From the NCBI RefSeq assembly GCF_013315695.1, contig NZ_CP054353.1: a DNA stretch of 64,000 bases. One strand, given 5' to 3'. This DNA is from Escherichia coli (GTDB lineage Bacteria; Pseudomonadota; Gammaproteobacteria; Enterobacterales; Enterobacteriaceae). Shown in pieces: positions 26,637-61,088 of this stretch; the stretch's first letter is position 1, and every line of letters starts with the position of its first letter. Below the pieces are notes generated by a model. It was not told the origin of the DNA, did not search any database, and saw nothing but the letters and a program-made list of their open reading frames with translations. Position numbers and translations under genes: made by a program.

Positions 26637-26670
26637 TGCCTGCAAGAGATTTCATATTTGGGAGAGCATC

Positions 26671-26913
26671 ATGCTGGAACTACTTTTTGTGATTGGCTTT
26701 TTCGTCATGCTGATGGTCACCGGCGTTTCGTTGCTGGGCATTATCGCTGCGCTGGTTGTGGCGACGGCCATTATGTTCCTCGGCGGTATGCTGGCATTGA
26801 TGATTAAGTTGCTGCCGTGGTTACTACTGGCGGTTGCGATGGTGTGGGTTATTAAGGCGATTAAAGCACCAAAAGTGCCGAAATATCAGCGTTATGACCG
26901 CTGGCGTTACTAA
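26671..26913 (+). CDS. pspG: phage shock protein G
   Basis: 80-aa hydrophobic protein MLELLFVIGFFVMLMVTGV... Confidence 0.85.
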   Translation: MLELLFVIGFFVMLMVTGVSLLGIIAALVVATAIMFLGGMLALMIKLLPWLLLAVAMVWVIKAIKAPKVPKYQRYDRWRY

Positions 26914-27078
26914 GGGATTGTGCGGATGATCACAACCTAAGGTTTTATCCTTAGAACAAAATAGGAATTGATAATCAAATCTGTCACTATTGCGCCTCTA
27001 ACAGATTCATCGTGCTGTACCCTACATACAGCCGAACTATAAAAAGAAAGGGCTTCCCAGGTGGAAGCCCTATTTCTT

Positions 27079-28062: not shown

Positions 28063-28144
28063 GTGTCCTCCAGAACGTATCGTCAGGGTCTGCTTCATAT
28101 GGTAAAGTTTCGACCCATTCTTTATCTCGGTAACTCCATTCACT

Positions 28145-29560
28145 ATGGCAGGAAATAAACCCTTCAACAAACAGCAGGCTGAACCCCGCGAACGCGATCC
28201 ACAAGTTGCCGGGCTGAAAGTGCCTCCGCACTCGATCGAAGCGGAGCAGTCGGTGTTGGGCGGTTTAATGCTGGATAACGAACGCTGGGATGATGTAGCC
28301 GAGCGGGTGGTGGCAGACGACTTTTACACCCGCCCACACCGTCATATCTTTACTGAAATGGCGCGTTTGCAGGAAAGCGGTAGTCCTATCGATCTGATTA
28401 CCCTTGCGGAATCGCTGGAACGCCAGGGGCAACTTGATAGCGTCGGTGGTTTCGCTTATCTGGCGGAGCTGTCAAAAAATACGCCAAGTGCGGCGAACAT
28501 CAGTGCTTATGCTGACATCGTGCGTGAACGTGCCGTTGTTCGCGAGATGATTTCGGTTGCGAATGAGATTGCCGAAGCCGGTTTTGATCCGCAGGGGCGT
28601 ACCAGCGAAGATCTGCTGGACCTGGCTGAATCCCGCGTCTTTAAAATTGCCGAAAGTCGTGCAAACAAAGACGAAGGGCCGAAGAACATCGCCGATGTGC
28701 TCGACGCCACGGTGGCGCGTATTGAGCAGTTGTTTCAGCAGCCACACGATGGCGTTACCGGGGTAAACACCGGTTATGACGATCTCAACAAAAAAACCGC
28801 TGGCTTGCAGCCGTCGGATTTGATCATCGTCGCCGCGCGTCCGTCGATGGGTAAAACAACATTTGCGATGAACCTCGTCGAAAACGCGGCGATGTTGCAG
28901 GATAAACCAGTACTTATCTTCTCGCTGGAGATGCCATCAGAACAGATTATGATGCGTTCTTTGGCGTCGCTGTCGCGCGTTGACCAGACTAAAATCCGTA
29001 CCGGGCAGCTCGATGATGAAGACTGGGCACGTATTTCCGGCACCATGGGTATTTTGCTCGAAAAACGCAATATCTATATCGATGACTCCTCCGGCCTGAC
29101 GCCAACGGAAGTGCGTTCCCGCGCACGCCGTATTGCCCGTGAACACGGCGGCATCGGGCTTATCATGATCGACTACCTGCAACTGATGCGCGTACCGGCG
29201 CTTTCCGATAACCGTACGCTGGAAATTGCAGAAATCTCCCGCTCGCTGAAAGCACTGGCGAAAGAACTGAACGTGCCGGTGGTGGCGCTGTCCCAGTTGA
29301 ACCGTTCTCTGGAACAACGTGCCGACAAACGCCCGGTCAACTCCGACCTGCGTGAATCTGGCTCTATCGAGCAGGATGCGGACTTGATCATGTTTATCTA
29401 TCGTGATGAGGTGTATCACGAAAACAGTGATTTAAAAGGCATCGCGGAAATTATTATCGGTAAACAACGTAACGGCCCAATCGGGACGGTACGCCTGACC
29501 TTTAACGGTCAATGGTCGCGCTTCGACAACTATGCGGGGCCGCAGTACGACGACGAATAA
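28145..29560 (+). CDS. dnaB: replicative DNA helicase DnaB
   Basis: 471-aa protein with Walker A ARPSMGKTTFAMN and helicase motifs. Confidence 0.97.
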   Translation: MAGNKPFNKQQAEPRERDPQVAGLKVPPHSIEAEQSVLGGLMLDNERWDDVAERVVADDFYTRPHRHIFTEMARLQESGSPIDLITLAESLERQGQLDSVGGFAYLAELSKNTPSAANISAYADIVRERAVVREMISVANEIAEAGFDPQGRTSEDLLDLAESRVFKIAESRANKDEGPKNIADVLDATVARIEQLFQQPHDGVTGVNTGYDDLNKKTAGLQPSDLIIVAARPSMGKTTFAMNLVENAAMLQDKPVLIFSLEMPSEQIMMRSLASLSRVDQTKIRTGQLDDEDWARISGTMGILLEKRNIYIDDSSGLTPTEVRSRARRIAREHGGIGLIMIDYLQLMRVPALSDNRTLEIAEISRSLKALAKELNVPVVALSQLNRSLEQRADKRPVNSDLRESGSIEQDADLIMFIYRDEVYHENSDLKGIAEIIIGKQRNGPIGTVRLTFNGQWSRFDNYAGPQYDDE

Positions 29561-29612
29561 TAATTATTTTATGAATTAGGTAATTAAAGCAAACACTTAT
29601 CAAGGAACACAA

Positions 29613-30692
29613 ATGCAAGCGGCAACTGTTGTGATTAACCGCCGCGCTCTGCGACACAACCTGCAACGTCTTCGTGAACTGGCACCTGCCAGTAAAATGG
29701 TTGCGGTGGTGAAAGCGAACGCTTATGGTCACGGTCTTCTTGAGACCGCGCGAACGCTCCCCGATGCTGACGCCTTTGGCGTAGCCCGTCTCGAAGAAGC
29801 TCTGCGACTGCGTGCGGGGGGAATCACCAAACCTGTACTGTTACTCGAAGGCTTTTTTGATGCCAGAGATCTGCCGACGATTTCTGCGCAACATTTTCAT
29901 ACCGCCGTGCATAACGAAGAACAGCTGGCTGCGCTGGAAGAGGCCAGCCTGGACGAGCCGGTTACCGTCTGGATGAAACTCGATACCGGTATGCACCGTC
30001 TGGGCGTAAGGCCGGAACAGGCTGAGGCGTTTTATCATCGCCTGACCCAGTGTAAAAACGTTCGTCAGCCGGTGAATATCGTCAGCCATTTTGCGCGCGC
30101 GGATGAACCAAAATGCGGCGCAACCGAGAAACAACTCGCTATCTTTAATACCTTTTGCGAAGGCAAACCAGGTCAACGTTCCATTGCCGCATCGGGTGGC
30201 ATTCTGCTGTGGCCACAGTCGCATTTTGACTGGGTGCGTCCGGGCATCATTCTTTACGGCGTCTCGCCGCTGGAAGATCGTTCCACCGGTGCCGATTTTG
30301 GCTGTCAGCCAGTGATGTCACTAACCTCCAGCCTGATTGCCGTGCGTGAGCACAAAGCCGGAGAGCCTGTCGGTTATGGTGGAACCTGGGTAAGCGAACG
30401 TGATACCCGCCTGGGCGTAGTCGCGATGGGTTATGGCGATGGTTATCCGCGCGCCGCGCCGTCCGGTACGCCAGTGCTGGTGAACGGTCGCGAAGTGCCG
30501 ATTGTCGGGCGAGTCGCGATGGATATGATCTGCGTAGACTTAGGTCCACAGGCGCAGGATAAAGCCGGGGACCCGGTCATTTTATGGGGCGAAGGTTTGC
30601 CCGTAGAACGTATCGCTGAAATGACGAAAGTAAGCGCTTACGAACTTATCACGCGCCTGACTTCAAGGGTCGCGATGAAATACGTGGATTAA
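29613..30692 (+). CDS. alr: alanine racemase (biosynthetic)
   Basis: 359-aa protein; PLP-lysine motif [10 protein letters not shown]. Confidence 0.95.
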
Positions 30693-38580: not shown

Positions 38581-38671
38581 TCTATCGTCGGAAAAAGTGT
38601 CTTGTATAAATTGGTGATTTTTCACATAAAGTGTACCTTGTAATTGTGTAATGTTTATGGGGTGTGAGTGC

Positions 38672-39919
38672 ATGGAAAAGAACTACAGAGTTACAACATT
38701 TGTCATGGATAGTGGCGAGCGCTATTGCATGGTAGTGGATCGTGCTTCTGGGCTTCCCATGTATTACCCCACTCTGTTTCTAACAACTCAAATCCGCAAT
38801 AGAGAGGATGCTTTTTCAACGATGTTGGCGGCGGCTAACAACCTGGTTATGTTGTTACGCTTTGTAGAGAGTCGCGACATTGACCTTGAGCAGCGGTTTT
38901 TGACCAAAGACTTCTTCAAGCCACATGAGCTGGATGATCTGCGAGATTTTGCTCAGTGCAAACAAAGAAAGGGGCCATTAACTGTGTCCTCTACCTCTTG
39001 GTTGGCCGATGCGATGACCGATATCGTTGATAACGGGACACAGCATTCCCGGCTAACAACGTTTGCCAACTATTTACACTGGTATGCGATGCATATCTTA
39101 AAGACGACAGAACTGGAAGTTGTCGAAAAGATCAATGCTATGGCGGCGCAGATAAAGACGCGCCGACCATCTAAAAAGCGCAGAAACCACGACTTACAAG
39201 ACAGGTCATTGAGTGATGTTCAATTGGACGCGCTATTTGAAGTCATCCAGCCTAGATCAGAGTTAAACCCTTTCTCAATAGATGTGCAGCGCCGCAATCG
39301 GCTGATGATCTTACTTCTGTTTTATCTTGGCATCCGAGGTGGTGAATTATTAAATATAAGAATACAGGACATAGATTTTAGCGCTAACAGGATCCGTATC
39401 GTTAGGAGAGCAGATGAACAAGCTGACTCTAGAACCAATGAGCCTAATGCTAAAACTAGAGAACGGCTCTTACCGTTGGCTGAATCCTTAGCTCAAGAAC
39501 TGCATAGTTATATCCTTCAAGATCGCCGGAAAGTCAGAAATGCGAAGAAAAATGACTATCTGTTTGTAACTTACAAGAGTGGACCAACTCTGGGAAATCC
39601 TATCTCCAAAGGGGGATATCATAAAATTTTTTCCGTAGTCAGGTCTATATCACCGCAATTGTATGCAGCGACAGGACATTCGCTCCGCCACACTTGGAAT
39701 CGCAAGTTTTCAGAAAGAATGGATGCCATGAATGAGCAAGTCAGCGAGGAACGCCAAGAGCAACTTCGTTCGTACTTAATGGGCTGGAGAGATGGCTCGG
39801 GAACCGCAGCGACTTACAACAAGCGTTTCATTCGGCAAAAAGGTTTTGAGGCCGCCTTGGCATTACAAGCAGGTAACGGCACTAGCTTGCCAGAGGACTT
39901 CAAGGATGACCATGAATAA
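38672..39919 (+). CDS. tyrosine recombinase 1 of 3 (phage-integrase family)
   Basis: Integrase motifs: box-I Arg region LLFYLGIRGGELLNIRIQDIDF, GHSLRHTW (H-x-x-R) and LMGW...TAATYNKRF (catalytic Tyr). Alternative ATG starts at 38651 and 38657. Confidence 0.8.
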   Translation: MEKNYRVTTFVMDSGERYCMVVDRASGLPMYYPTLFLTTQIRNREDAFSTMLAAANNLVMLLRFVESRDIDLEQRFLTKDFFKPHELDDLRDFAQCKQRKGPLTVSSTSWLADAMTDIVDNGTQHSRLTTFANYLHWYAMHILKTTELEVVEKINAMAAQIKTRRPSKKRRNHDLQDRSLSDVQLDALFEVIQPRSELNPFSIDVQRRNRLMILLLFYLGIRGGELLNIRIQDIDFSANRIRIVRRADEQADSRTNEPNAKTRERLLPLAESLAQELHSYILQDRRKVRNAKKNDYLFVTYKSGPTLGNPISKGGYHKIFSVVRSISPQLYAATGHSLRHTWNRKFSERMDAMNEQVSEERQEQLRSYLMGWRDGSGTAATYNKRFIRQKGFEAALALQAGNGTSLPEDFKDDHE

Positions 39920-41444
39920 CCTCTTACTTGGGTTAGTACCAGAACGAATCCGTGCCAGGGCCAATGGCTACTCTTTTCTGTTGTATGACACATCGTGGAC
40001 ATTGGATAGAAATATCACTATTAATCTTGCTGATATTCACCATTACTTGTCAGATGGGACGCTAGATGGCTGCCTGCGTACACTGGCGTTTTATGCATCC
40101 AATCGTTCTTCTTCTCATACAAAAAATATTCTTGAACGGTTTCAGCACATGCTGCGTGAGACTGACGCGAGAGAAATTACTGATACGGTATTGATTAATT
40201 ATCGGTCGATGCTGTCGCCTGCAACAGAATGGTATCTAGCAACCATCCGTGGCTTTCTTCGATCCTGGCACGAACTGGGCTATCCCGGCATCAGTAAGGA
40301 GGTGAACCGCTTGCTAGATGGCTGGACGCTAAAGGGTAATCGTAAGGGGGATGCGGTTAAGCGCATGGATCCTCAAGAGGGGCCACTGACGGATAATGAG
40401 CTGACAGCGTTTAACGAGGGGGCTGTTCGGGCTTATGAAAAGAGCTTAATTACTATAGCTGAGTTGGCTATAGCACTTGGCACCAGTCATACAGGACGTC
40501 GTCCCATTCAGATCTCGCTGCTTCGTGTGGTCGATGTCCTTTGTGGTAAAAATGGAAAGGGAGAGCCCTTCTATGTGTTGAATGTGCCGCGAGCCAAGCA
40601 GCGCAGCAGCTCTTTCCGAATAAACTTCAAACCATTTGCAATATCACTGGAACTATGGGCAATCCTGAGTGCTCAGGCAAGAAATGCGATTGCGCAGGTT
40701 GAAAATCGTTTGGGGTTTGAATTGCAGGAAGATGACCGGCAGCAAATCCCTCTTTTTCCTGATCTTGATGTGTTAGATGCCGTCCAATCTCCTTATGAAT
40801 TCCGCCAACTGCATGCTACCGACAAACTCCACATTCCCGCCGCAGAGATAACCGACACCCTCCAATACATCGTAGAAAAGTCCGACATCCGGTCGGAACG
40901 TACCGGTGAGCTATTACATATCAATGCTCGTCGTTTTCGTTATACCACAGGCACACGAGCTGCCCGGGAAGGCTTTGGCGAGCTGGTGATTGCGGAACTG
41001 CTTGACCACGCGGACACCCAAAACGCAGGCGTTTACATCAAGAATATCCCCGAGCATGTGAAAAAGCTTGATGAGGCGGTTGGCTTCCAATTAGCACCAT
41101 ACGCTCAGGCCTTTGTCGGGGCACTTGTCGATTCAGAGAGAGACGCGCATCGAGGTAACGACCCTACCAGTCGTATTCGGACCGAAATGGGTCAGGGTGT
41201 TGGTACTTGTGGAGAACATGGCTTTTGTGGTGCCAATGTTCCTATTCCTTGCTACACCTGCATGCATTTCCAGCCTTGGCTGGACGGCCCACATGAAGAT
41301 GTCTATCAAGGACTGCTCAACGAACGTGAACGGGTGAAAGAGATAACTGGCGACATCCAGATTGCTGCCGTACTTGATCGCAGTATTATCGCGCTGGCAG
41401 ATGTGATCATGCGTTGTGCAAAACGTCGTGAAGAGCTTAGTTAA
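39905..41444 (+). CDS. tyrosine recombinase 2 of 3, with C-terminal Cys-rich region
   Basis: Start ATG overlaps the stop of recombinase 1 (translational coupling); ARRFRYTTGTRAA ... LLDHADTQNAGVYIK resembles the R/H-x-x-R ... Y catalytic region; Cys cluster CGEHGFCGANVPIPCYTCMHF. Confidence 0.7.
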
Positions 41445-41460
41445 CAGGGAGCAATAACCA

Positions 41461-43494
41461 ATGGCTGAGATTTTCCTGTTTAAGCCAAAGGCTACGCTGA
41501 CAGCAGCAGAAAACCTTGAAGCATTCATATCCCAGTGCCGAGATCAATTGACTGTATTCGGCTCTGATCTCACTTGGGAAGATCCTGTTTGGCCAAACAT
41601 AACTGTATTTGCCAAGTTGGGCATTATTACGAGAAAACCCATACTGGAAGAGACGCAAGACCCTGCTTTCATTGATTTTGCCAAAGCCTATTTCCGTTAC
41701 CAGCAGGGGCATAGCCTCTCTAGGGCAAAGAATGAAAGTAAAGCCCTCCGTGCGGTTGAGGCGGCTTTGCTTCAAGTAAATGGAAACGCAAATATTGATG
41801 GCCTGTCGATTTCTGTGCTGGATGAAGCAGCTGAATTGGCAAAGCATTACTACTCCGATGGCTCCGCATATCATTGTGGCCGTGAGATTGAGCGGCTGGC
41901 TAAGTTTGTAGCTGAAAACCAGCTTGTATCAAGTGCTGTACAAAATTGGGTCAATCCAATTAAACGTGCAGAGGATAAGAACAAAACGAGCAGAAAGGCG
42001 AAGAAAAATAGGGAAGATAAACTTCCGAGTGATATTGCTCTTAATGCGTTGGCGGAAATTTTTGCCAACGACCCAATTCATGAGCGAGACATATTTACAA
42101 CATCGGTTTTTGCCATGTTGATGTCGGCACCTTCACGTATTACTGAGGTGTTAGCACTGCCTGTGGATTGCGAGGTTTTTGAAACGGATCGTGAAGGGAT
42201 AGAACGATATGGTTGGCGTTTTTTTGCGGGGAAAGGCTATGAGGGTGATATCAAATGGATACCCACCGTGATGGTCGGTATAGCTAAGACAGCCGTAGCT
42301 AGAGCTAGAGTGCTCTCTGAAAATGCACGACAACTGGCCAAGTGGATCGAGAAACACCCGAATAAGTTTTACCGCCATGCTAACTGTCCCAGTGTAGCCG
42401 ATGATGAGCCATTGACGATGAAGCAGGTTTGTATGGCGCTCGGTTTTGCACATTACTCTAAAAAGACGTGCAGGTCGTGTCTTGGTAATCGAGGTTTAGC
42501 TAAAGAGGATGGTGTACATACTCTAAATAGCCTGTGGCAGCACACAATGGCGCGTTTACCGGATGGCTTTCCGTGGTTTGATAAAGACAAGGGAATTAGG
42601 TACAGCAATGCCTTGTTTGTACTGAACGTAAATCAGTTCCACGGGAACAGAGGATGCATACCAGTTGAGTTACATAAGCCAACCAATAATTTCTTCAACA
42701 GTGATCTGACGCCTCGTCTGTCCTTGAAAGGAAAACATGCCAGTATCTTTGATCGCCATGGTTACCATGCTGTAAACGGAGAGCCGGTGAAATTAACCTC
42801 ACATCAGGCTCGACACCTGCTCAACACCATTATCCAGCGCGGTGGCCTGTCAAACTTGGAAATTGCCAAGTGGTCGGGGCGGGCAGATGTGAAACAGAAT
42901 CGAACTTACAACCACATGACTGAATACGAACTGGTTGGCATTGCTGAACGCCTTGATCCCACAACAGCGCTATTTGGGCCTGCTGGCGAGGTGGCAAAGC
43001 ATCTGCCCGTGACTATGCAGGAGTTCAATACCTTAGAGCATGCCGCAGTCCATGTGACGGAGTATGGCTACTGTGTGCATGATTACACCATGAGTCCTTG
43101 TGAGAAATTCCGAGATTGCGTCAATTGTACCGAACAGGTTTGCATCAAAGGCGATGATGCTGAAAAGTTGGATCGCATTAAGATACGTCTGGAGAAATTA
43201 GAGCGACTGTTTTTTCTTGCTGACGCAGCAGTGGAAAGTGGTGAGATAGGAACTGATCGCTGGTATCAGTACCACAAGAAAACTGTTACCCGGCTTCGTG
43301 AACTAGTGGCTATTTTAGAGAATCCAGACATTGAAAATGGTGTCCAGATTAAGCTCCGGGGCAATGATTTCAGCCAGCTTCGCCGTGTTGTCGCAAAGAC
43401 GTCTATTGTGGCCATCGAGCAAAAAGGCAAAGAAAGTGAAGAAGCTGTGATGTTAGATGATTTGACAACTTTGTTAGGAGGTGGCCTTGGCTAA
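41461..43494 (+). CDS. tyrosine recombinase 3 of 3 (677 aa), with C-terminal Cys-rich region
   Basis: LTSHQARHLLNTIIQRGG ... WSGRADVKQNRTYNHMTEYE (H-x-x-R-H ... Y); Cys cluster YGYCVHDYTMSPCEKFRDCVNCTEQVC; begins 16 bp after recombinase 2. Confidence 0.75.
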   Translation: MAEIFLFKPKATLTAAENLEAFISQCRDQLTVFGSDLTWEDPVWPNITVFAKLGIITRKPILEETQDPAFIDFAKAYFRYQQGHSLSRAKNESKALRAVEAALLQVNGNANIDGLSISVLDEAAELAKHYYSDGSAYHCGREIERLAKFVAENQLVSSAVQNWVNPIKRAEDKNKTSRKAKKNREDKLPSDIALNALAEIFANDPIHERDIFTTSVFAMLMSAPSRITEVLALPVDCEVFETDREGIERYGWRFFAGKGYEGDIKWIPTVMVGIAKTAVARARVLSENARQLAKWIEKHPNKFYRHANCPSVADDEPLTMKQVCMALGFAHYSKKTCRSCLGNRGLAKEDGVHTLNSLWQHTMARLPDGFPWFDKDKGIRYSNALFVLNVNQFHGNRGCIPVELHKPTNNFFNSDLTPRLSLKGKHASIFDRHGYHAVNGEPVKLTSHQARHLLNTIIQRGGLSNLEIAKWSGRADVKQNRTYNHMTEYELVGIAERLDPTTALFGPAGEVAKHLPVTMQEFNTLEHAAVHVTEYGYCVHDYTMSPCEKFRDCVNCTEQVCIKGDDAEKLDRIKIRLEKLERLFFLADAAVESGEIGTDRWYQYHKKTVTRLRELVAILENPDIENGVQIKLRGNDFSQLRRVVAKTSIVAIEQKGKESEEAVMLDDLTTLLGGGLG

Positions 43495-43906
43495 GCATCT
43501 GGACAATAGAGACATTAACGCCATCGTAAATCTAATTCGAGGATGGAAGGAACCAAAACTGTCCTGGTCAGCAATTTGTGAGGCGGCAGAACCATTGGTC
43601 GGAAAGTTGCCGTCAAGACAGTCCCTTAATGCACATGAGGCAATAGTGACTGCCTATCAAACAAAGAAAGAGGCGCTTAAAGGCCGTGGCCCCAAAAATC
43701 CGCGTCCAGCTAGTTTGAACATTGCAGCCGCGAGGATTGTGAATCTTGAAAGCGAAATCGAAGAGCTTAAGGAAGAGAACCGGAGGTACAAACAACAGTT
43801 TGTGATCTGGCAATACAATGCATACAAATATGGAATGACAGAACATCAACTTAATGCGCAGCTGACAAAGATTGACCGTGAGCGCTCTGATGGAGAAAGA
43901 AGATAG
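43481..43906 (+). CDS. small recombinase-associated protein (141 aa, predicted coiled coil)
   Basis: ORF start overlaps the recombinase-3 stop by 14 bp; charged, helix-prone sequence (LESEIEELKEENRRYKQQF); placement is like TnpC of Tn554-type elements. Confidence 0.6.
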   Translation: MALAKHLDNRDINAIVNLIRGWKEPKLSWSAICEAAEPLVGKLPSRQSLNAHEAIVTAYQTKKEALKGRGPKNPRPASLNIAAARIVNLESEIEELKEENRRYKQQFVIWQYNAYKYGMTEHQLNAQLTKIDRERSDGERR

Positions 43907-43981
43907 TTGCTGAGTACGATATCGAGGGTACATTTCTCTGTGTAGGGGTAGTTATTTACAAAAAAATAGGAGAATAATTAA

Positions 43982-46900
43982 ATGGTCAAACCAAACTGGG
44001 ATAACTTTAAAGCTAAATTTAGTGAGAATCCTCAAGGTAATTTTGAGTGGTTTTGCTACTTGTTGTTCTGTCAAGAATTCAAAATGCCCGCAGGTATATT
44101 TAGATATAAGAATCAATCTGGTATCGAAACTAATCCAATAACCAAAGATAATGAAATTATCGGTTGGCAATCTAAATTCTATGACACAAAATTGTCGGAT
44201 AACAAAGCTGATCTTATAGAAATGATTGAGAAAAGCAAAAAGGCTTATCCAGGATTAAGTAAAATCATTTTCTATACTAATCAAGAGTGGGGGCAGGGGA
44301 GAAAGTCCCATGAACCTGAAGGCGATAAGAACGCTGATAATTATTTGGAAACTGTCGGAAATAGTAACGATCCCAAAATAAAAATTGAAGTTGATCAGAA
44401 AGCATATGAGTCGGGTATCGAAATAGTATGGAGAGTTGCTAGTTTTTTTGAATCACCGTTTGTAATAGTTGAGAATGAAAAGATTGCTAAACATTTCTTC
44501 TCCCTTAATGAAAGCATCTTTGATTTATTAGAAGAAAAGCGCAAGCACACAGAAAATGTTTTATATGAAATTCAAACCAATATAGAGTTCAAAGACAGAA
44601 GTATTGAAATTGACAGACGACATTGTATAGAACTTCTACATGAGAATCTAGTTCAGAAAAAAATTGTCATCGTCAGCGGAGAAGGTGGGGTTGGAAAAAC
44701 AGCAGTTATCAAAAAAATTTATGAAGCAGAAAAACAATACACTCCTTTCTATGTCTTTAAGGCTAGCGAGTTTAAAAAGGACAGTATTAATGAGCTATTC
44801 GGTGCGCATGGCTTAGACGATTTCTCTAATGCTCATCAAGACGAATTACGTAAAGTCATAGTCGTAGATTCTGCTGAAAAGCTTTTAGAACTGACCAATA
44901 TCGATCCTTTTAAAGAATTCCTGACTGTTTTAATAAAGGATAAATGGCAGGTTGTTTTCACAACCCGTAACAACTACTTGGCAGATCTGAACTATGCTTT
45001 CATAGATATTTATAATATAACTCCTGGAAACTTAGTAATAAAGAACCTTGAACGCGGCGAGCTAATAGAGTTATCTGATAACAATGGATTTAGCCTTCCT
45101 CAAGATGTTCGATTATTAGAACTAATCAAAAATCCATTTTATCTAAGTGAATATTTGAGGTTCTATACCGGTGAAAGCATCGATTATGTGAGCTTCAAAG
45201 AAAAGCTTTGGAATAAGATTATTGTCAAAAATAAACCTTCTCGGGAGCAGTGTTTCTTAGCGACTGCTTTTCAGCGGGCTAGTGAGGGCCAATTTTTTGT
45301 CTCCCCGGCATGTGATACTGGAATTTTAGATGAGTTAGTTAAAGACGGAATTGTCGGCTATGAAGCTGCTGGTTACTTCATTACACATGATATATACGAG
45401 GAATGGGCATTAGAAAAGAAAATTTCTGTCGATTATATCCGTAAAGCGAACAATAACGAGTTCTTCGAAAAAATAGGAGAATCACTTCCTGTTCGCCGTA
45501 GTTTTCGGAATTGGATATCTGAACGATTGCTTTTAGATGACCAGTCCATAAAGCCTTTTATCGCAGAAATAGTCTGTGGAGAAGGAATATCAAATTTTTG
45601 GAAAGACGAGTTATGGGTAGCTGTCCTTCTTTCCGATAATTCAAGCATATTTTTTAATTACTTTAAAAGATATTTACTTAGTAGTGACCAGAATCTATTA
45701 AAAAGACTTACTTTCTTATTGAGGCTTGCTTGCAAGGACGTTGATTACGATCTGCTTAAACAGTTAGGTGTAAGTAATTCAGATCTGCTTTCCATTAAAT
45801 ATGTTCTTACTAAGCCTAAGGGAACTGGTTGGCAGAGTGTGATCCAATTTATCTATGAAAATTTAGATGAAATAGGGATCAGAAATATTAATTTTATACT
45901 TCCTGTGATTCAGGAGTGGAATCAAAGAAACAAAGTGGGTGAAACGACTCGATTATCTAGTTTGATAGCCCTAAAATATTATCAATGGACTGTAGATGAG
46001 GATGTCTATTTATCCGGAAGGGATAATGAGAAAAATATTCTGCATACGATTCTTCATGGGGCGGCCATGATTAAACCTGAAATGGAAGAGGTTTTAGTTA
46101 AGGTTCTTAAAAATAGGTGGAACGAGCACGGTACCCCATATTTCGACCTTATGACCTTAATCCTTACTGACTTAGATTCATATCCGGTTTGGGCATCTCT
46201 CCCGGAATATGTTCTACAATTGGCAGATCTGTTCTGGTATCGGCCACTTAAAGAAACAGGCGAACGTTATCACAGTATGGATATTGAAGATGAGTTCGGT
46301 CTATTTAGGTCTCATCACGACTATTATCCAGAAAGTCCATATCAGACTCCTATATATTGGTTACTACAATCACAGTTCAAAAAAACAATAGACTTTATTC
46401 TTGATTTTACGAACAAGACAACGATATGTTTTGCCCACTCCCATTTTGCTAAAAACGAAATTGAAGAAGTCGATGTCTTTATTGAAGAAGGAAAGTTTAT
46501 AAAGCAATATATATGCAATCGTCTGTGGTGCTCATATCGAGGAACACAGGTCTCTACCTACTTACTTTCATCAATTCATATGGCATTGGAAAAATTTTTT
46601 CTTGAGAATTTTAAAAATGCAGACTCGAAAGTGTTGGAAAGTTGGCTTCTTTTCTTGTTAAGAAATACCAAGTCAGCTTCTATTTCTGCAGTAGTTACGA
46701 GTATTGTACTTGCATTCCCTGAGAAGACATTCAATGTAGCTAAAGTACTATTCCAAACAAAGGATTTCTTCCGTTTTGATATGAATCGAATGGTTCTAGA
46801 CAGAACACATAAAAGTTCATTAATCTCCCTCAGGGATGGCTTTGGCGGTACAGATTACAGAAACTCTTTGCACGAAGAAGATAGAATTAAAGCTTGCGAT

Positions 46901-48745
46901 GATGTGCATAGAAATACTTATCTTGAAAATCTTGCCTTGCATTATCAAATTTTCAGGAGTGAAAATGTAACGGAGAAAGATGTCATTGAAAGGCAACAAG
47001 TGCTCTGGGGTATTTTCGATAAATACTATAATCAGCTTCCAGATGAAGCTCAAGAAACTGAAGCCGATAAGACGTGGAGGCTCTGCTTGGCAAGAATGGA
47101 TCGGCGAAAGATGAAAATAACTACCAAGGAGAAAGATGAAGGGATTGAGATATCATTCAATCCTGAGATTGACCCTAAACTAAAGCAATATAGTGAGGAA
47201 GCAATAAAGAAAAACTCCGAGCATATGAAGTATGTAACGCTGAAACTATGGGCAAGCTATAAAAGAGAAAAGGATGAACGTTATAAGAATTATGGAATGT
47301 ATGAGGACAATCCGCAAATTGCTTTACAAGAGACCAAAGAAATAATAAAAAAGCTTAATGAGGAAGGGGGTGAAGATTTCAGACTATTAAATGGTAATAT
47401 ACCAGCAGACGTTTGTTCTGTATTACTGTTAGATTACTTTAATCAGTTGAATAATGAAGAGAGAGAATATTGTAAAGATATTGTTCTAGCATATTCTCAA
47501 CTTCCGTTGAAGGAAGGCTATAATTATCAGGTACAAGATGGGACAACCTCGGCAATTTCAGCCTTACCCGTGATTTATCATAATTATCCAATGGAAAGGG
47601 AGACTATAAAAACAATATTACTTTTGACACTGTTTAATGACCACTCTATTGGAATGGCAGGTGGGCGCTACTCAGTATTTCCTAGTATGGTGATTCATAA
47701 ATTATGGCTAGACTATTTTGATGATATGCAGTCTCTATTGTTTGGTTTTTTGATTTTAAAGCCAAAGTATGTAATTCTTTCAAGAAAAATCATTCATGAA
47801 AGTTATCGTCAAGTAGACTATGACATTAAAAAAATAAATATTAATAAGGTGTTTTTAAATAACTATAAGCATTGCATATCAAATGTCATCGATAATAAAA
47901 TATCTATAGATGATTTGGGAAGTATAGATATAGTTGATCTACATATTTTGAACACAGCTTTCCAATTAATTCCAGTTGATACTGTTAATATTGAACATAA
48001 GCAATTGGTTTCCTTAATTGTTAAAAGATTTTCTACAAGCCTATTGTCAAGTGTTCGAGAAGATAGAGTTGATTACGCTCTTCGGCAGTCTTTCTTGGAA
48101 AGATTTGCCTACTTTACGCTTCATGCGCCCGTGAGCGATATTCCCGATTATATAAAACCTTTTCTTGATGGTTTCAACGGTTCAGAGCCTATTTCAGAGT
48201 TATTTAAAAAATTTATTCTCGTCGAAGATAGATTAAATACTTACGCCAAATTTTGGAAGGTTTGGGATTTGTTTTTTGATAAAGTGGTTACTTTGTGCAA
48301 GGATGGAGATAGGTATTGGTATGTAGATAAAATTATAAAAAGTTACCTTTTTGCTGAATCTCCATGGAAAGAAAACTCTAATGGTTGGCACACATTTAAA
48401 GATAGCAATAGTCAATTCTTTTGCGATGTATCTAGGACTATGGGCCATTGCCCTTCAACTTTATATTCTCTTGCCAAATCTTTGAATAACATTGCCAGTT
48501 GCTATCTTAATCAAGGTATAACCTGGCTTTCAGAAATGTTGTCGGTTAATAAAAAGCTATGGGAAAAGAAATTGGAAAATGATACTGTTTATTTTTTAGA
48601 ATGTTTGGTTAGGCGGTATATTAACACTGAGCGTGAGCGAATTAGACGAACCAAACAGTTGAAAGAAGAGGTCTTAGTAATATTGGATTTTTTGGTAGAG
48701 AAAGGATCTGTTGTTGGTTATATGTCACGGGAAAATATTCTGTGA
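43982..48745 (+). CDS. large STAND-type P-loop NTPase with N-terminal Mrr/PD-(D/E)xK-like domain; candidate Avs-like antiviral sensor
   Basis: 1587-aa ORF, about one third GC. Walker A IVIVSGEGGVGKTAV; Walker B VIVVDSAEKL; sensor-1-like VVFTTRN; N-terminus FEWFCYLLF...SGIETN...IIGWQSKFY...KIIFYTNQEW resembles Mrr catalytic-domain motifs; long C-terminal region of more than 1000 aa. RBS-like GGAG upstream. Confidence 0.75.
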   Translation: MVKPNWDNFKAKFSENPQGNFEWFCYLLFCQEFKMPAGIFRYKNQSGIETNPITKDNEIIGWQSKFYDTKLSDNKADLIEMIEKSKKAYPGLSKIIFYTNQEWGQGRKSHEPEGDKNADNYLETVGNSNDPKIKIEVDQKAYESGIEIVWRVASFFESPFVIVENEKIAKHFFSLNESIFDLLEEKRKHTENVLYEIQTNIEFKDRSIEIDRRHCIELLHENLVQKKIVIVSGEGGVGKTAVIKKIYEAEKQYTPFYVFKASEFKKDSINELFGAHGLDDFSNAHQDELRKVIVVDSAEKLLELTNIDPFKEFLTVLIKDKWQVVFTTRNNYLADLNYAFIDIYNITPGNLVIKNLERGELIELSDNNGFSLPQDVRLLELIKNPFYLSEYLRFYTGESIDYVSFKEKLWNKIIVKNKPSREQCFLATAFQRASEGQFFVSPACDTGILDELVKDGIVGYEAAGYFITHDIYEEWALEKKISVDYIRKANNNEFFEKIGESLPVRRSFRNWISERLLLDDQSIKPFIAEIVCGEGISNFWKDELWVAVLLSDNSSIFFNYFKRYLLSSDQNLLKRLTFLLRLACKDVDYDLLKQLGVSNSDLLSIKYVLTKPKGTGWQSVIQFIYENLDEIGIRNINFILPVIQEWNQRNKVGETTRLSSLIALKYYQWTVDEDVYLSGRDNEKNILHTILHGAAMIKPEMEEVLVKVLKNRWNEHGTPYFDLMTLILTDLDSYPVWASLPEYVLQLADLFWYRPLKETGERYHSMDIEDEFGLFRSHHDYYPESPYQTPIYWLLQSQFKKTIDFILDFTNKTTICFAHSHFAKNEIEEVDVFIEEGKFIKQYICNRLWCSYRGTQVSTYLLSSIHMALEKFFLENFKNADSKVLESWLLFLLRNTKSASISAVVTSIVLAFPEKTFNVAKVLFQTKDFFRFDMNRMVLDRTHKSSLISLRDGFGGTDYRNSLHEEDRIKACDDVHRNTYLENLALHYQIFRSENVTEKDVIERQQVLWGIFDKYYNQLPDEAQETEADKTWRLCLARMDRRKMKITTKEKDEGIEISFNPEIDPKLKQYSEEAIKKNSEHMKYVTLKLWASYKREKDERYKNYGMYEDNPQIALQETKEIIKKLNEEGGEDFRLLNGNIPADVCSVLLLDYFNQLNNEEREYCKDIVLAYSQLPLKEGYNYQVQDGTTSAISALPVIYHNYPMERETIKTILLLTLFNDHSIGMAGGRYSVFPSMVIHKLWLDYFDDMQSLLFGFLILKPKYVILSRKIIHESYRQVDYDIKKININKVFLNNYKHCISNVIDNKISIDDLGSIDIVDLHILNTAFQLIPVDTVNIEHKQLVSLIVKRFSTSLLSSVREDRVDYALRQSFLERFAYFTLHAPVSDIPDYIKPFLDGFNGSEPISELFKKFILVEDRLNTYAKFWKVWDLFFDKVVTLCKDGDRYWYVDKIIKSYLFAESPWKENSNGWHTFKDSNSQFFCDVSRTMGHCPSTLYSLAKSLNNIASCYLNQGITWLSEMLSVNKKLWEKKLENDTVYFLECLVRRYINTERERIRRTKQLKEEVLVILDFLVEKGSVVGYMSRENIL

Positions 48746-48840
48746 TGTAGTTGAAAATAATAATTTTAATGAGAGCTTTTCCAATTTAGGCTCCAGGGAT
48801 TGGAGCCTTTTTATTATCGAAAAGATTAATATCTTATAAG

Positions 48841-49059
48841 TCAATCAGTAAAACGCAGCAAAGCTCGTTGCTCTTGAATGTTCACTCCGTGATAAATTCT
48901 TTGATTACCACATAAATAACAAGAACAAGCACAAGGGGTGCAGTAAATTTTCCCTACAACTTTTTCAGTTTTAGCCAACGCAATTCGATATGTTTTTCTC
49001 TTAGATTTTAACCGAGATATATGATGACGACGCCATGCCCGATTTCTAACCATTTCCAT
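48841..49059 (-). CDS. small basic Cys-rich ORF (72 aa), possible zinc-ribbon protein or gene remnant
   Basis: ORF with RRHHISRLKSKRK and C-x-x-C-x-C...C; lies between the convergent NTPase gene and the 273-aa gene; coding status uncertain. Confidence 0.25.
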   Translation of the reverse strand: MEMVRNRAWRRHHISRLKSKRKTYRIALAKTEKVVGKIYCTPCACSCYLCGNQRIYHGVNIQEQRALLRFTD

Positions 49060-49283
49060 TCACTCCAATTTTCTACCGCGGTGTTATACCGCGCCCGTAT
49101 CAATCTTTGGAGTTCGATATCGATCTGACCTTTCATGAATACCTCGGAATTTATCAATAAAGTGAGTGCTATATCATAGCTTATGGGATGAAAGTTTGAT
49201 ATTTAGCACTTTTCAGCTTTAGGTAAAGCTGTCCTCAATAAAGCTAATTTCTTGTTTATTAATGGAATTTCTATGTGGAAGTG

Positions 49284-50105
49284 TTAGAAATCCTGTTTTA
49301 CTTTATCCATCGTTAAAACTTTACTTATTATATAAGGATCATAATTTCTTATACTCATAAGGCAATTTATCAAATTGGAAACGTGGCTATCATCAGGTAT
49401 AAGTATATATTTAATATCATCGAAAGAAAAACCAATGCCAAATTCAGAGAATTTTTTACTTAAGACGGCCTTCTGGTTAGGTTCCACCACTCGCTCTAAA
49501 TTTAGGCTAGGCCATAAATCGCCAACAAACGGATGCGGTACATATCTCCATTCTTTTTCGTCAGCGTAGATATAATTCTCAATGGTTTTTTCGTTCGTCC
49601 TTTCTAATTTCCCTTTATAATTTTTCATATAGCGTAATAAATTATAAAGGTCAGCGTACTCTTCTTTAAGGCTTTCAAAATACTTACGCTCTTTATTATC
49701 AAGGATATGCCTTTTCGACCATAGCGGAATTAACGCATCCTTTAGTTTTCTAATTCTTTTATTATACTTTGAAAATAATTCACTGCCTTGATTCATGTAT
49801 AGAACGGGATGGAGATCATTTTTCTCAGCCCATTCTTTTGTTAACCCAAATCCAAATTCACCATATTTTCCACTATGATCTTTAATCTGAGAAAGCTTGA
49901 TGTCACAGAATGAAACCATTGGTACTGCGAAATTTCTTCTTCCTTTTACTCCGACTATGCGTTCACGGGCAAGAAATGGTTTAAAATAGAGTTCTGTTAA
50001 AATGCTATAGAATGCCTCTTCATTTTTAGTAAAGTGAAACAACGTTGTTGGATGTAAACTATTAACTGCTTGTATAACTGTTTCTTGGTTTTCTATAGCA
50101 CTCAT
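49284..50105 (-). CDS. AT-rich hypothetical protein (273 aa), possible abortive-infection or defence-associated protein
   Basis: Clean ORF convergent with the NTPase gene; no family identified with certainty from sequence alone (LFHFTKNEEAFYSIL N-terminal motif). Confidence 0.6.
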   Translation of the reverse strand: MSAIENQETVIQAVNSLHPTTLFHFTKNEEAFYSILTELYFKPFLARERIVGVKGRRNFAVPMVSFCDIKLSQIKDHSGKYGEFGFGLTKEWAEKNDLHPVLYMNQGSELFSKYNKRIRKLKDALIPLWSKRHILDNKERKYFESLKEEYADLYNLLRYMKNYKGKLERTNEKTIENYIYADEKEWRYVPHPFVGDLWPSLNLERVVEPNQKAVLSKKFSEFGIGFSFDDIKYILIPDDSHVSNLINCLMSIRNYDPYIISKVLTMDKVKQDF

Positions 50106-54231: not shown

Positions 54232-55581
54232 ATGTCTACGCCATCAGCGCGTACCGGCGGTTCACTCGACGCCTGGTTTAAAATTTCACAACGTGGAAGC
54301 ACTGTCCGTCAGGAAGTGGTTGCCGGGTTAACAACGTTTCTGGCGATGGTCTACTCGGTTATCGTCGTTCCAGGCATGTTGGGTAAAGCGGGCTTCCCGC
54401 CTGCGGCAGTTTTCGTTGCGACCTGTCTGGTTGCCGGACTCGGTTCTATCGTGATGGGTCTGTGGGCTAATCTGCCGTTGGCGATTGGTTGCGCCATCTC
54501 CCTGACGGCGTTTACCGCATTCAGTCTGGTGCTGGGGCAACATATTAGCGTACCTGTCGCGCTGGGTGCCGTGTTCCTGATGGGTGTGCTGTTTACGGTC
54601 ATTTCTGCCACGGGTATCCGTAGCTGGATTTTGCGCAACTTGCCGCACGGTGTGGCGCACGGCACGGGGATCGGTATCGGTCTGTTCCTGCTGCTGATTG
54701 CTGCGAATGGTGTCGGTCTGGTGATTAAAAACCCGCTTGATGGTCTGCCCGTTGCGCTGGGTGATTTCACGACCTTTCCGGTGATGATGTCACTGGTAGG
54801 TCTGGCGGTGATCATCGGCCTGGAAAAACTGAAAGTCCCTGGTGGCATTCTGCTGACCATTATCGGTATCTCAATTGTCGGTTTGATCTTCGATCCTAAC
54901 GTCCATTTCTCCGGCGTTTTCGCTATGCCTTCATTGAGCGATGAAAACGGCAATTCACTGATTGGCAGCCTGGATATTATGGGCGCGCTGAATCCTGTAG
55001 TCCTGCCAAGCGTTCTGGCGCTGGTGATGACGGCAGTATTTGATGCCACCGGAACTATCCGCGCCGTCGCCGGTCAGGCGAACCTGCTGGATAAAGACGG
55101 GCAGATCATCGACGGCGGGAAAGCACTGACCACTGACTCCATGAGTAGCGTTTTCTCTGGCCTGGTGGGTGCAGCTCCGGCAGCGGTATACATCGAGTCT
55201 GCGGCGGGTACGGCGGCGGGCGGTAAAACCGGGTTGACGGCTATCACCGTTGGCGTGCTGTTCCTGCTGATTCTGTTCCTCTCTCCGCTCTCTTACCTCG
55301 TTCCGGGGTACGCAACGGCTCCGGCGTTGATGTACGTTGGCCTGCTGATGCTGAGCAACGTGGCGAAAATCGACTTTGCTGATTTTGTTGATGCGATGGC
55401 GGGTCTGGTTACGGCGGTATTCATCGTGCTGACCTGTAACATCGTAACAGGCATCATGATCGGCTTCGCGACTCTGGTGATTGGTCGTCTGGTTTCCGGC
55501 GAATGGCGCAAGTTGAACATCGGTACGGTCGTTATTGCCGTGGCGCTGGTGACCTTCTATGCGGGTGGCTGGGCTATCTAA
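54232..55581 (+). CDS. ghxP: guanine/hypoxanthine permease (NCS2 family)
   Basis: 449-aa polytopic membrane protein; synteny (yjcD). Confidence 0.92.
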
Positions 55582-55618: not shown

Positions 55619-57044
55619 TAATGCCAGTCAGTTAAGCAACTGACTGGCTCTTTTTCGGGGCTGTGGGGTATTTCCAGGGCCTCTCCTTTACCACTCTCGG
55701 GAAGGCCCTTTCCCTTCTTGTCGGTAATTTCACAAGTTGTCCCATACTTGCAAGATCGCGCATCAGCTCCGGTATACGTCCCGGTGAAGCGCCCTGCAAT
55801 GTCATCAGCATTCTCATCACCATTCCGCATGATTCTGAGAAACTCAGTTGATTCGGCCAGTAACCTTTCAGATGTTCCGCCATTTTAATCATCTGATATC
55901 TCACCAGATTATAAGCCAGTAAGACACCCCACAGCTCTTGCTCCACAAGCTCCGGTTTTTTACTTCTCAGCGTCAGCCTGCTCAGTTGCATCGTCTGTTT
56001 TATCTCCCTGTATCCCAGTTCGATTTCCCAGCGATGACTGTACAGATCCGCCATTTCTCCTCCGGGGAAGCGCATGGCGTCCGTCATCGACGTCAGCAGA
56101 TGGCAGACTTTTCCTTTGCGCGTCACGGTCAGCAGGCGGGCTGTCACTTCATTTCCCAGTCCCGGCCACTTTTTTCGTGCCTGCGGGCTGGTTTTCAGCT
56201 TCACCAGATGATCGCCTTTACCCAGTTTTCTGATCTCTTCATATTGCGCTCCCTTTCTGAGAGGTATCATCCAGTGGCGGTGTTCTCCCGCCAGGCTCCA
56301 GGCATTTAACAGTCCCAGTGAGTAATAACCTTTATCCATTAACGTCAGAGTGTTATCGCCGGTTTGTTCTATAAGTTGCTCAGCAAGCTCATTTTCGCTG
56401 TTCTTCATCGTGCCGAAGGCTGCAGCCGTCAGCAGATGGCTGGTCAGTTCCATCTGGCAGACCATTTTGACCTGCGGGTAGAGCGCCGGGTTCCCGGCAT
56501 GTGTCTGGCGGGGGAAGGCTGCATCGTTCTCTGGTGTATCCGGTGTGCGCCAGAACACACCATCGATGGCCAGCAGGGTCAGGCCGCACCAGTGCGGATG
56601 CGGCGTGGCGTTATGCCAGAGCTGCGCTGTTTTCGTGAACACGCGGCGGACAGCCTCACTTCCCAGGCGCTGGCGGGCCTGAATAACGGCACTGGGGGCA
56701 ACGAAGGGGCGATTGCCCGGCAGCATGATGTCCAGGCGATTCACAATCTGGTGAAGAGGTTCTTTACGCTCAAGCGCCATGCCAACAATACACCAGACCA
56801 TCATTTCGAGGGGAAGACGGCGCTTGCGTAGCGTTACAGTACCTGATTCGGCAAGGCAACGAGAGATGAGTTCGGGGTCGAGGTAATCCCCCAGAGAAGT
56901 CAGTGGGTTACGCAGAGAATCGTAACGGGATACCAGATCAAGAGCCTGTCCAATGTGCATAAAAAAATCCGGAAACAAGTGAGCGTTTCCGGATTCTTAC
57001 ACAGCCACTGGATCGGTCAACTGATCCTTAACTGATCGGCATTA
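55619..57044 (-). mobile_element. IS4 insertion sequence (1426 bp) with 13-bp target duplication GTGGCAATGGCTG
   Basis: Imperfect terminal inverted repeats TAATGCCAGTCAGTTAAGCA / TAATGCCGATCAGTTAAGGA; direct repeat at 55606..55618 and 57045..57057; encodes a DDE transposase. Confidence 0.9.
55632..56960 (-). CDS. insG: IS4 transposase
   Basis: About 442-aa DDE transposase ([16 protein letters not shown]...); the track ORF extends 6 codons further upstream. Confidence 0.9.
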
Positions 57045-57170: not shown

Positions 57171-58820
57171 ATGGAAATCTTCTTCACCATACTGATAATG
57201 ACCCTCGTGGTCTCGCTGTCCGGGGTGGTCACTCGTGTCATGCCCTTTCAGATCCCGCTTCCGCTTATGCAAATCGCCATCGGTGCGCTACTGGCGTGGC
57301 CGACGTTTGGTTTGCATGTGGAGTTTGATCCTGAACTCTTTTTAGTCTTGTTTATCCCGCCGTTGCTGTTCGCTGATGGCTGGAAAACGCCGACCCGTGA
57401 ATTTCTCGAACATGGGCGAGAGATTTTCGGCCTCGCGCTGGCGCTGGTGGTGGTCACCGTGGTCGGCATTGGCTTCCTTATTTACTGGGTGGTGCCGGGC
57501 ATTCCGCTGATCCCCGCCTTTGCGCTGGCGGCGGTGCTTTCTCCGACCGATGCTGTGGCGCTCTCCGGGATTGTTGGCGAAGGGCGCATCCCGAAAAAAA
57601 TCATGGGCATTTTGCAGGGCGAAGCGTTGATGAATGACGCCTCTGGCCTGGTGTCGTTGAAGTTTGCCGTAGCAGTGGCGATGGGGACGATGATCTTCAC
57701 CGTCGGTGGTGCGACGGTCGAATTTATGAAAGTGGCCATTGGCGGTATTCTCGCCGGTTTTGTGGTGAGCTGGCTGTACGGTCGCTCGCTGCGATTCCTC
57801 AGCCGCTGGGGCGGTGATGAACCCGCGACGCAGATCGTCCTGCTGTTCCTGCTGCCATTCGCTTCTTATCTGATTGCCGAACATATTGGCGTTTCCGGTA
57901 TCCTCGCTGCGGTTGCCGCCGGGATGACCATCACCCGCTCCGGTGTGATGCGCCGTGCGCCGCTGGCAATGCGCCTGCGCGCAAACAGTACCTGGGCGAT
58001 GCTGGAATTTGTCTTTAACGGCATGGTATTCCTGCTGTTAGGTCTGCAGCTGCCGGGTATTCTGGAGACATCGCTGATGGCGGCAGAAATCGACCCTAAC
58101 GTCGAAATCTGGATGCTGTTTACCGATATCATTCTGATTTATGCGGCGCTGATGCTGGTCCGTTTCGGCTGGCTGTGGACGATGAAAAAGTTCAGCAACC
58201 GCTTCCTGAAGAAGAAGCCGATGGAGTTTGGTTCGTGGACCACACGAGAAATCCTGATCGCGTCTTTCGCCGGGGTGCGTGGGGCGATCACTCTGGCTGG
58301 TGTGCTCTCTATCCCGCTGCTCTTGCCGGATGGTAACGTCTTCCCGGCGCGCTATGAGCTGGTATTCCTGGCGGCTGGTGTCATTCTCTTCTCGCTGTTT
58401 GTCGGCGTGGTGATGTTGCCTATTCTGCTACAACACATTGAAGTCGCGGACCATTCGCAACAATTGAAAGAGGAACGTATTGCGCGAGCGGCAACGGCAG
58501 AAGTGGCGATTGTGGCGATCCAGAAAATGGAGGAGCGTCTGGCGGCGGATACCGAAGAGAATATCGATAACCAGCTGCTCACAGAGGTTAGTTCTCGCGT
58601 CATTGGTAACCTGCGTCGTCGCGCCGATGGACGTAACGACGTTGAAAGTTCCGTGCAGGAAGAGAACCTTGAGCGTCGCTTCCGTCTGGCGGCATTGCGT
58701 TCTGAACGTGCTGAACTGTACCACCTGCGCGCCACGCGGGAGATCAGCAACGAAACGCTGCAAAAATTACTGCACGATCTCGATTTGCTTGAAGCGTTGT
58801 TGATTGAAGAGAACCAATAA
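57171..58820 (+). CDS. yjcE: Na+/H+ exchanger family protein (CPA1)
   Basis: 549-aa membrane protein with a charged C-terminal tail; synteny. Confidence 0.9.
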   Translation: MEIFFTILIMTLVVSLSGVVTRVMPFQIPLPLMQIAIGALLAWPTFGLHVEFDPELFLVLFIPPLLFADGWKTPTREFLEHGREIFGLALALVVVTVVGIGFLIYWVVPGIPLIPAFALAAVLSPTDAVALSGIVGEGRIPKKIMGILQGEALMNDASGLVSLKFAVAVAMGTMIFTVGGATVEFMKVAIGGILAGFVVSWLYGRSLRFLSRWGGDEPATQIVLLFLLPFASYLIAEHIGVSGILAAVAAGMTITRSGVMRRAPLAMRLRANSTWAMLEFVFNGMVFLLLGLQLPGILETSLMAAEIDPNVEIWMLFTDIILIYAALMLVRFGWLWTMKKFSNRFLKKKPMEFGSWTTREILIASFAGVRGAITLAGVLSIPLLLPDGNVFPARYELVFLAAGVILFSLFVGVVMLPILLQHIEVADHSQQLKEERIARAATAEVAIVAIQKMEERLAADTEENIDNQLLTEVSSRVIGNLRRRADGRNDVESSVQEENLERRFRLAALRSERAELYHLRATREISNETLQKLLHDLDLLEALLIEENQ

Positions 58821-58836
58821 CGCTTGGCGGTGTAAT

Positions 58837-58872
58837 CGGTAAAAAGGTGCAGTACATCGCACCTTTTTACCG
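58837..58872. terminator. bidirectional terminator between convergent yjcE and actP
   Basis: cggtaaaaaggtgc-agtacatc-gcacctttttaccg hairpin with A/T runs on both arms. Confidence 0.75.
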
Positions 58873-58901
58873 TTGGTCAGGTGACCAGAGGCTAGTGGAG
58901 A

Positions 58902-60862
<1,961 letters not shown>

Positions 60863-61035
60863 CACAGATTCTCCAGAGGTTCCCCGTCGTCTTTCACGCC
60901 GCAGGTTCGTCAGCCGCACTCGCCTCCCCCAGTCACATAGTTTTCTATGCTCCTGGGGAGATGCTCGCTTGCTTCCTTCCTGCAACGCGAAATACTTAGG
61001 GGAATTTTTATATTTGCCCTTTCCCACTATAAAGA

Positions 61036-61082
61036 AAGGGGCGTGTAGACCGGATAAGGCGTTATACGCCGCATCCGGCAAT
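61036..61082. repeat. REP element downstream of acs
   Basis: gtagaccggataaggcgttatacgccgcatccggca palindrome. Confidence 0.75.
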
Positions 61083-61088
61083 TGTGGG

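Follow-up and report, generated by a model that had tools for sequence, protein, structure and literature searches.

Genes and spacer at the yjcE-actP junction

The window, that is, the whole stretch of 64,000 nucleotides of Escherichia coli DNA that was analysed, contains the convergent genes yjcE and actP (Table 1). As stated in the preliminary description, they are separated solely by a terminator-like spacer. The gene identities follow the RefSeq annotation of strains MS 21-1 and MSB1_4I, both 100% identical to the window over the yjcE-actP junction. The genes acs, yjcH and actP are co-transcribed as an operon. By the annotation and the list of open reading frames, the stronger of the two hairpins in the spacer, hairpin 1, stands at the end of this gene series.

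Table 1. Features of the yjcE-actP region, in coordinates of the window
Feature	Position	Strand	Basis or remark
yjcE (Na+/H+ antiporter), 549 aa	57171..58820	+	ORF list; RefSeq annotation of identical records
Last 7 codons of yjcE, inner edge of the allele-specific segment	58800..58820	+	Pairwise alignment, allele table
yjcE stop codon, TAA	58818-58820	+	Left edge of the spacer
yjcE-actP spacer, 81 nt, read as the "empty" allele of a three-state site	58821..58901		Coordinates and comparison with K-12
Hairpin 1, 14-bp stem, 8-nt loop, GGTGC/GCACC core	58837..58872		Folds on both strands, pattern search
Hairpin 2, 6 bp, TTGGTC-AGGT-GACCAG	58873..58888		Folds
actP stop codon, TTA on the plus strand	58902-58904	-	Right edge of the spacer
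actP (cation/acetate symporter), 549 aa	58902..60551	-	ORF list; RefSeq annotation
yjcH and acs, upstream of actP	60548..63047	-	Annotation; ORF list

The spacer is short, as had been noted, but the earlier count of 82 bp between the stop codons is off by one. In K-12 (MG1655-pvir, locus L001), where the distance might likewise have been about 80 bp, these stop codons are 1623 bp apart, and the interval includes the gene yjcF, also named espX5, on the minus strand (4175..5467 of the locus). The absence of yjcF between yjcE and actP, claimed in the preliminary description, is thus confirmed. Searches of the window with the cassettes that occupy this site in other genomes (tblastn and blastn) gave no coding or nucleotide remnant of yjcF, lysR, lrgA or lrgB. 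Neither the 430-aa pentapeptide-repeat gene of the K-12 cassette nor a set of LysR, LrgA and LrgB genes lies between yjcE and actP. The strain therefore appears to lack both the LysR-regulated pair of LrgAB-family membrane proteins and the pentapeptide-repeat protein.

Hairpins of the spacer

The arms of hairpin 1 are CGGTAAAAAGGTGC and GCACCTTTTTACCG. The hairpin begins 16 nt past the yjcE stop and lies 29 nt from the actP stop. When folded, its stem is 14 bp long on the plus strand and 15 bp on the minus strand. The GGTGC/GCACC core is flanked by runs of five A (58841-58845) and five T (58864-58868). The pattern A5-stem-loop-stem-T5 occurs once in the window, with 0.00 occurrences expected by chance. 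The folding energy of the spacer is -34.4 kcal/mol on the plus strand and -30.6 kcal/mol on the minus strand, the respective z-scores are -4.1 and -6.0, and none of 200 shuffled sequences folded equally well.

By its structure, hairpin 1 is a putative bidirectional intrinsic (Rho-independent) terminator, which would end transcription of both yjcE on the plus strand and acs-yjcH-actP on the minus strand. As in known terminators of this kind, its stem-loop has a G+C core bordered by an A tract and, on the opposite side, by a T tract, so that the hairpin is followed by a U run in either transcript. Unlike them, it is missed by a simple consensus scan. The scan of positions 58500..59200 for consensus terminators and promoters produced no sites. 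We judge this miss to be a limit of the scan and not evidence against hairpin 1, because, in our reading, the A and T tracts pair together and lengthen the stem past the T run that is sought.

Two other identities were considered for the spacer. In Rfam, the best hits of the region 58600..59100 at a permissive E-value score 9-18 bits, compared to gathering scores of 40-270, and have E-values of 0.6-8.5, which is the chance level. A REP/BIME-like repeat was rejected, since the pattern search gives one match in the window and blastn finds one place per genome in 263 genomes.

The preliminary description mentioned a single strong hairpin. Only one is strong, but there is also a second one, hairpin 2. 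It probably represents a divergent copy of the hairpin adjacent to actP in the other alleles (CCCCGGTC-AGAC-GACCGGGG): when the flanks are set side by side and compared by eye, about 19 of 31 positions are identical, and homology is plausible.

E. coli HS-02 (L096, 2501..2563) has a 63-nt variant of the window-type spacer, shortened by deletion of the 3' half of hairpin 1. Should this hairpin be the terminator, the strain is left without it.

Three states of the site in E. coli

The survey covered 5426 complete E. coli genomes. The K-12 type interval with yjcF is found in 4118 of them (approximately 76%), an interval containing lysR, lrgA and lrgB in 1038 (approximately 19%), and a contiguous empty junction in 263-268 (approximately 5%). 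Together, the three states account for about 5424 of the 5426 genomes. The window-type spacer is present as a single copy in every genome that carries it.

The lysR-lrgAB cassette was reached from the approximately 1040 genomes explained by neither the yjcF state nor the empty one, through an O25:H4 strain (L084). The 2154-bp gap between yjcE and actP of this strain contains genes for a LysR-family regulator, a CidA/LrgA-family protein and an LrgB-family protein. The Pfam domains of the cassette products are HTH_1 with LysR_substrate, LrgA, and LrgB; YjcF has pentapeptide repeats.

The yjcF carriers identified by name are K-12, O157:H7 and 042, which belong to phylogroups A, E and D, respectively, plus a divergent lineage (L094) with yjcE approximately 97% identical. 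The lrgAB cassette is carried by ST131, ATCC 25922 and the Nissle-derived SYNB1934, all of phylogroup B2. Empty junctions are found in CE10, which has the exact 81-nt spacer, and in O78:H4 ST117, which has an 82-nt variant; these are of phylogroups F and G. No arpA lies between iclR and aceK in the closest matches to the window, MS 21-1 and MSB1_4I; under the Clermont typing scheme, its absence marks B2, F and G. The phylogroups given here are those of a few named strains, complemented by the absence of arpA. Within this scope, the expectation that presence or absence of yjcF follows lineage is borne out.

Twenty genomes carry only a part of the yjcF interval. In the E. coli O9:H10 strain Res13-Lact-PEB21-38-A (L089, 3001..3997), IS1 replaces most of yjcF and the flanks of the K-12 type are kept. 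This is an independent, recent, IS1-mediated loss of yjcF.

The lysR-lrgAB genes in other Enterobacterales

An outgroup scan with YjcE as the query and one genome per species yielded 80 loci; E. fergusonii, E. marmotae, E. ruysiae and Salmonella are not among these. A homologue of LysR is encoded directly 3' of yjcE in 68 of the 76 loci from other Enterobacterales, ranging from Citrobacter and Enterobacter to Mixta and Erwinia. All three genes, lysR, lrgA and lrgB, are present in approximately 56 of the 76, and the usual distance between yjcE and actP in these loci is about 2.15-2.2 kb. In E. whittamii (L004) the interval is 2154 bp long and 93.7% identical to that of ST131, which is in line with the 91-95% identity of the flanking genes. 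In E. coli B2, E. whittamii and other Enterobacterales, the cassette takes up exactly the space from the yjcE stop to the actP stop that is occupied by the spacer in the window, and the hairpin adjacent to actP is apparently common to the lrgAB alleles and the window spacer.

Since lysR-lrgAB is found in most of the Enterobacterales sampled and in E. whittamii, we infer that it is the ancestral occupant of the site. As this state is the older one, the main event in the lineage of the window would be the loss of lysR-lrgAB. The preliminary description had offered two possibilities, that the lineage never acquired yjcF or that the gene was cleanly deleted, and both overlook this third, older state. 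The K-12-centred view of the site is also corrected: its default occupant would be lysR-lrgAB, not yjcF, and the site exists in three mutually exclusive versions.

In Klebsiella indica (L029, 6645..6717) the yjcE-actP junction is empty as well. It is approximately 74 bp long and contains an unrelated G+C hairpin, CCCCGGCCTGCGGGCCGGGG. As this junction is independent, lysR-lrgAB would have been lost more than once in Enterobacterales.

Relationships between the alleles

The hairpin next to the actP stop appears to be common to all alleles. It has the form CCCCGRTCARRCGACCGGGG in the lrgAB and yjcF alleles and the diverged form TTGGTCAGGTGACCAG in the window type, and it is truncated in E. albertii.

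A segment of approximately 60 nt centred on hairpin 1 (AAAAAGGTGC...GCACCTTT) is common to the empty alleles and those with yjcF. It was aligned by MAFFT in the window, ST117, E. albertii, K-12, L094, the Escherichia lineage labelled E. coli SCPM-O-B-8794 (L005) and Escherichia sp. MOD1-EC7003 (L006). The alleles of E. albertii, L005 and L006 are empty alleles with the hairpin 1 segment, and the yjcE genes of these lineages are, respectively, 90%, 93% and 97% identical to that of the window. The segment has no counterpart in 13 intervals of the lrgAB type, where the matches are 10-14 nt long, at the chance level. Because of this, hairpin 1 was rejected as a candidate leftover of the lrgAB cassette. 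As the segment is shared by the empty and yjcF classes and absent from the lrgAB class, the former two would descend from one allele without lrgAB.

The allele-specific differences extend into the end of yjcE. Its last 21 bp have six synonymous differences, with TTGTTGATTGAAGAGAACCAATAA in the window and TTGCTAATTGAGGAAAATCAGTAA in K-12; the whole gene has 30 differences from K-12, six of them in the last 50 bp. Compared to K-12, the left arm in the window lacks a block of approximately 15-16 bases and contains many substitutions. Thus the flanks in the window are not the K-12 flanks joined together, as they would be after a clean deletion from the K-12 allele.

Several positions of hairpin 1 vary between alleles, on both sides of the stem, yet the stem itself is retained, in keeping with the terminator reading. 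Next to the loop, L006 and E. albertii have a G:C pair and K-12 an A:T pair; in the window, A and C stand there unpaired. At its base, the stem reads CGG/CCG in the window but CTG/CAG in both K-12 and L006. The outer arms found in the latter two differ by paired changes, being GCCCGAG/CTCGGGC in K-12 and CCTGAC/GTCAGG in L006. Such changes, read by eye from six distinct sequences, suggest selection for the structure of hairpin 1; in the MAFFT alignment used, the alleles are shifted by one column relative to each other in the outer 3' arm.

The outer arms extend the stem to 25-27 bp in K-12 and L006, and in this the hairpin differs from a typical terminator. In K-12, a 58-nt palindrome to the left of yjcF (L001, 4042..4099) is built around hairpin 1; its 27-nt arms are 85% complementary. 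L006 has a counterpart of this extended palindrome (6651..6747), and a simple terminator would not require a structure of such length.

Gain or loss of yjcF

As a whole, the observations are best explained, with reasonable though not high probability, by the spacer of the window being the empty allele of a three-state replacement site. The sequence of events would be as follows. Firstly, lysR-lrgAB, the ancestral state, would have been lost once, with the hairpin 1 segment left behind. Secondly, yjcF would have been inserted later, beside hairpin 1, in a related empty allele, and the allele bearing it would now mark the named genomes of phylogroups A, D and E, and probably B1. Finally, the lineage of the window, which lacks arpA and has a spacer as in the F strain CE10 and the G clone ST117, would have kept the empty allele. 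Of the two possibilities offered in the preliminary description, we somewhat favour the first, in the sense that the lineage carries an old empty allele, has lost lrgAB and never held yjcF; clean deletion from an allele of the K-12 type is not supported by the flanks.

The distribution and composition of yjcF bear on this order. In a collection of 5.8 billion proteins, YjcF falls into only eight protein clusters at E <= 1e-20. Their identity is 87% or more throughout, and each one with a source name is labelled E. coli. The G+C content of the yjcF cassette (approximately 1.5 kb) is about 0.30-0.33, compared to about 0.55 in the flanks. By these features yjcF, being A+T-rich and restricted to E. 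coli, looks late and foreign. Given the narrow distribution, the low G+C content and the older-looking empty alleles, insertion of yjcF into an empty allele is favoured. A search of phages and plasmids for a mobile donor of yjcF gave none, only distant pentapeptide proteins, mislabelled chromosomes and very large E. coli replicons. No convincing direct or inverted repeats bound the cassette; only the 58-nt palindrome that includes hairpin 1 stands out.

Two observations weaken the order with the empty allele first. The yjcF allele keeps the actP-side hairpin of the lrgAB type almost unchanged, whereas in the empty alleles it is diverged or truncated, so this order fits less neatly. Besides, the spacer of E. 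albertii, being the left flank of K-12 followed by a truncated right hairpin of the K-12/lrgAB type, looks like the K-12 allele minus yjcF, and this fits either direction.

The same observations bear on an alternative that we consider possible but rather unlikely, namely, an ancient clean deletion. Here the yjcF allele would have replaced lysR-lrgAB first, and the empty alleles of E. albertii, L005, L006 and E. coli F and G would be old deletions of yjcF that spread or persisted by recombination or incomplete lineage sorting. The right flank of the yjcF allele is nearly identical to that of the lrgAB allele, as if derived from it directly. The hairpin 1 segment is common to the empty and yjcF alleles, and it may have arrived as part of a larger insert. 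Moreover, yjcF is old within E. coli, as its alleles in K-12, 042 and L094 have 94-96% nucleotide identity. On the other hand, an ancient deletion has to accommodate the absence of any relative of YjcF below 87% identity among the 5.8 billion proteins, and several Escherichia species would need to have lost the gene without trace. No remnant of yjcF is present in any empty allele examined. A proposed remnant of the 3' end of lrgB in the right flank of the yjcF allele, which would have fixed the sequence of events, is not significant (shuffle p 0.14-0.75).

It is also conceivable, if doubtful, that the three classes form a long-lived polymorphism, common to several Escherichia species and older than the phylogroups of E. 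coli. It would be kept by selection on the LrgAB-type pair near the acetate uptake genes, and hairpin 1, a conserved long palindrome with compensatory changes between alleles, would be not just a terminator but a target of recombination or insertion that captured yjcF.

The loss may also have been specific to the ancestor of F and G, with lysR-lrgAB deleted from an allele like that of B2 independently of, and unrelated to, the other empty alleles of Escherichia. B2, which like its neighbours F and G is a deep lineage, retains the cassette, and the beginning of the spacer, CGCTTGGCGG, shares TTGGCGG with the yjcE-side hairpin of the lrgAB alleles. However, the approximately 50 nt of hairpin 1 have no counterpart in any lrgAB allele examined, and their homologues are found in the left flank of K-12 and in the spacers of E. 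albertii, L005 and L006; we regard this variant as quite improbable.

Recent clean deletion of yjcF from an allele of the K-12 type in the strain's own lineage is more improbable still. The gene is indeed lost occasionally, as in the O9:H10 strain with IS1 and the 20 genomes with partial intervals. However, that genuine recent case keeps its K-12-type flanks together with IS1, whereas in the window many positions of the spacer and of the final 21 bp of yjcE deviate from flanks of the K-12 type and the block of about 15-16 bases is missing; moreover, several clones, with 263 genomes in all, have this spacer as a fixed feature, and it occurs in another species-level lineage, L005. An artefact of the assembly or the window, with yjcF dropped by misassembly, is practically negligible, as 263-268 independent complete genomes have the same junction and the three states cover essentially all of the 5426 genomes.

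Comparison with known systems

The yjcF/espX5 locus of K-12 and O157, annotated as a member of the EspX family of type III secretion effectors, occupies the same site between the same flanking genes and contains a segment homologous to that of hairpin 1. It differs from the window by the gene itself and the surrounding A+T-rich cassette of about 1.5 kb, which the window lacks. The espX5 gene is routinely scored as variable in whole-genome surveys (PMC8764355, PMC12744401). Strains of the window type have neither this gene, scored in virulence surveys, nor the putative LysR-regulated LrgAB pair near the acetate uptake genes.

The site resembles the hot spots of accessory genes in E. coli, where, likewise, alternative unrelated segments lie between the same core genes and sort by deep lineage, and where the divergence at the boundaries is raised, as it is here. 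However, the yjcE-actP site is very small, having one gene, three genes or none; it has no integrase, tRNA or flanking direct repeats; and one of its alleles would be the ancestral core state.

In the literature searched, no paper describing the three-state structure of the yjcE-actP site was found. The site is an ordinary, if tidy, example of a known phenomenon, as both bidirectional terminators and alternative cassettes are well known. It implies no new mechanism and matters little beyond bookkeeping. In practice, it could serve as a lineage marker, with lrgAB in B2, the empty junction in F and G, and yjcF in A, D and E among the strains checked.

Other features of the window

MSB1_4I is collinear with the window. 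This includes an IS4-family element and an island with avs4, both of which are missing from MS 21-1. The transposase ORF of the former (55632..56978, minus strand) is situated between ghxP (54232..55581) and yjcE, approximately 190 bp upstream of the yjcE start; in MSB1_4I it has an internal stop according to RefSeq. The spacer between ghxP and yjcE in MS 21-1, CE10 and K-12 is only about 150 bp long. The insertion could alter expression of yjcE.

The island, at approximately 38670..50105 between ssb and yjcB, contains two tyrosine integrases, two hypothetical genes, avs4, which encodes an AVAST type 4 anti-phage nuclease, and an AbiGi-like gene. MS 21-1, lacking this island, is otherwise identical at the yjcE-actP junction. 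Further upstream, IS1 at approximately 21710..22410 splits dinF into two pseudogene fragments according to the matching record of MSB1_4I.

A gene encoding a 526-aa SopA family protein is located between ubiC and malM (13739..15319, plus strand). Upstream of approximately 15320..30000 the window and MSB1_4I are offset by one base, the ORF being at 13739..15319 where 13740..15320 was predicted; the match to that record may thus be near rather than exact. The protein has weak, repeat-level similarity to YjcF (35% over 49 aa, E-value 1e-5). Thus the strain, while having no yjcF, keeps another gene for a repeat protein.
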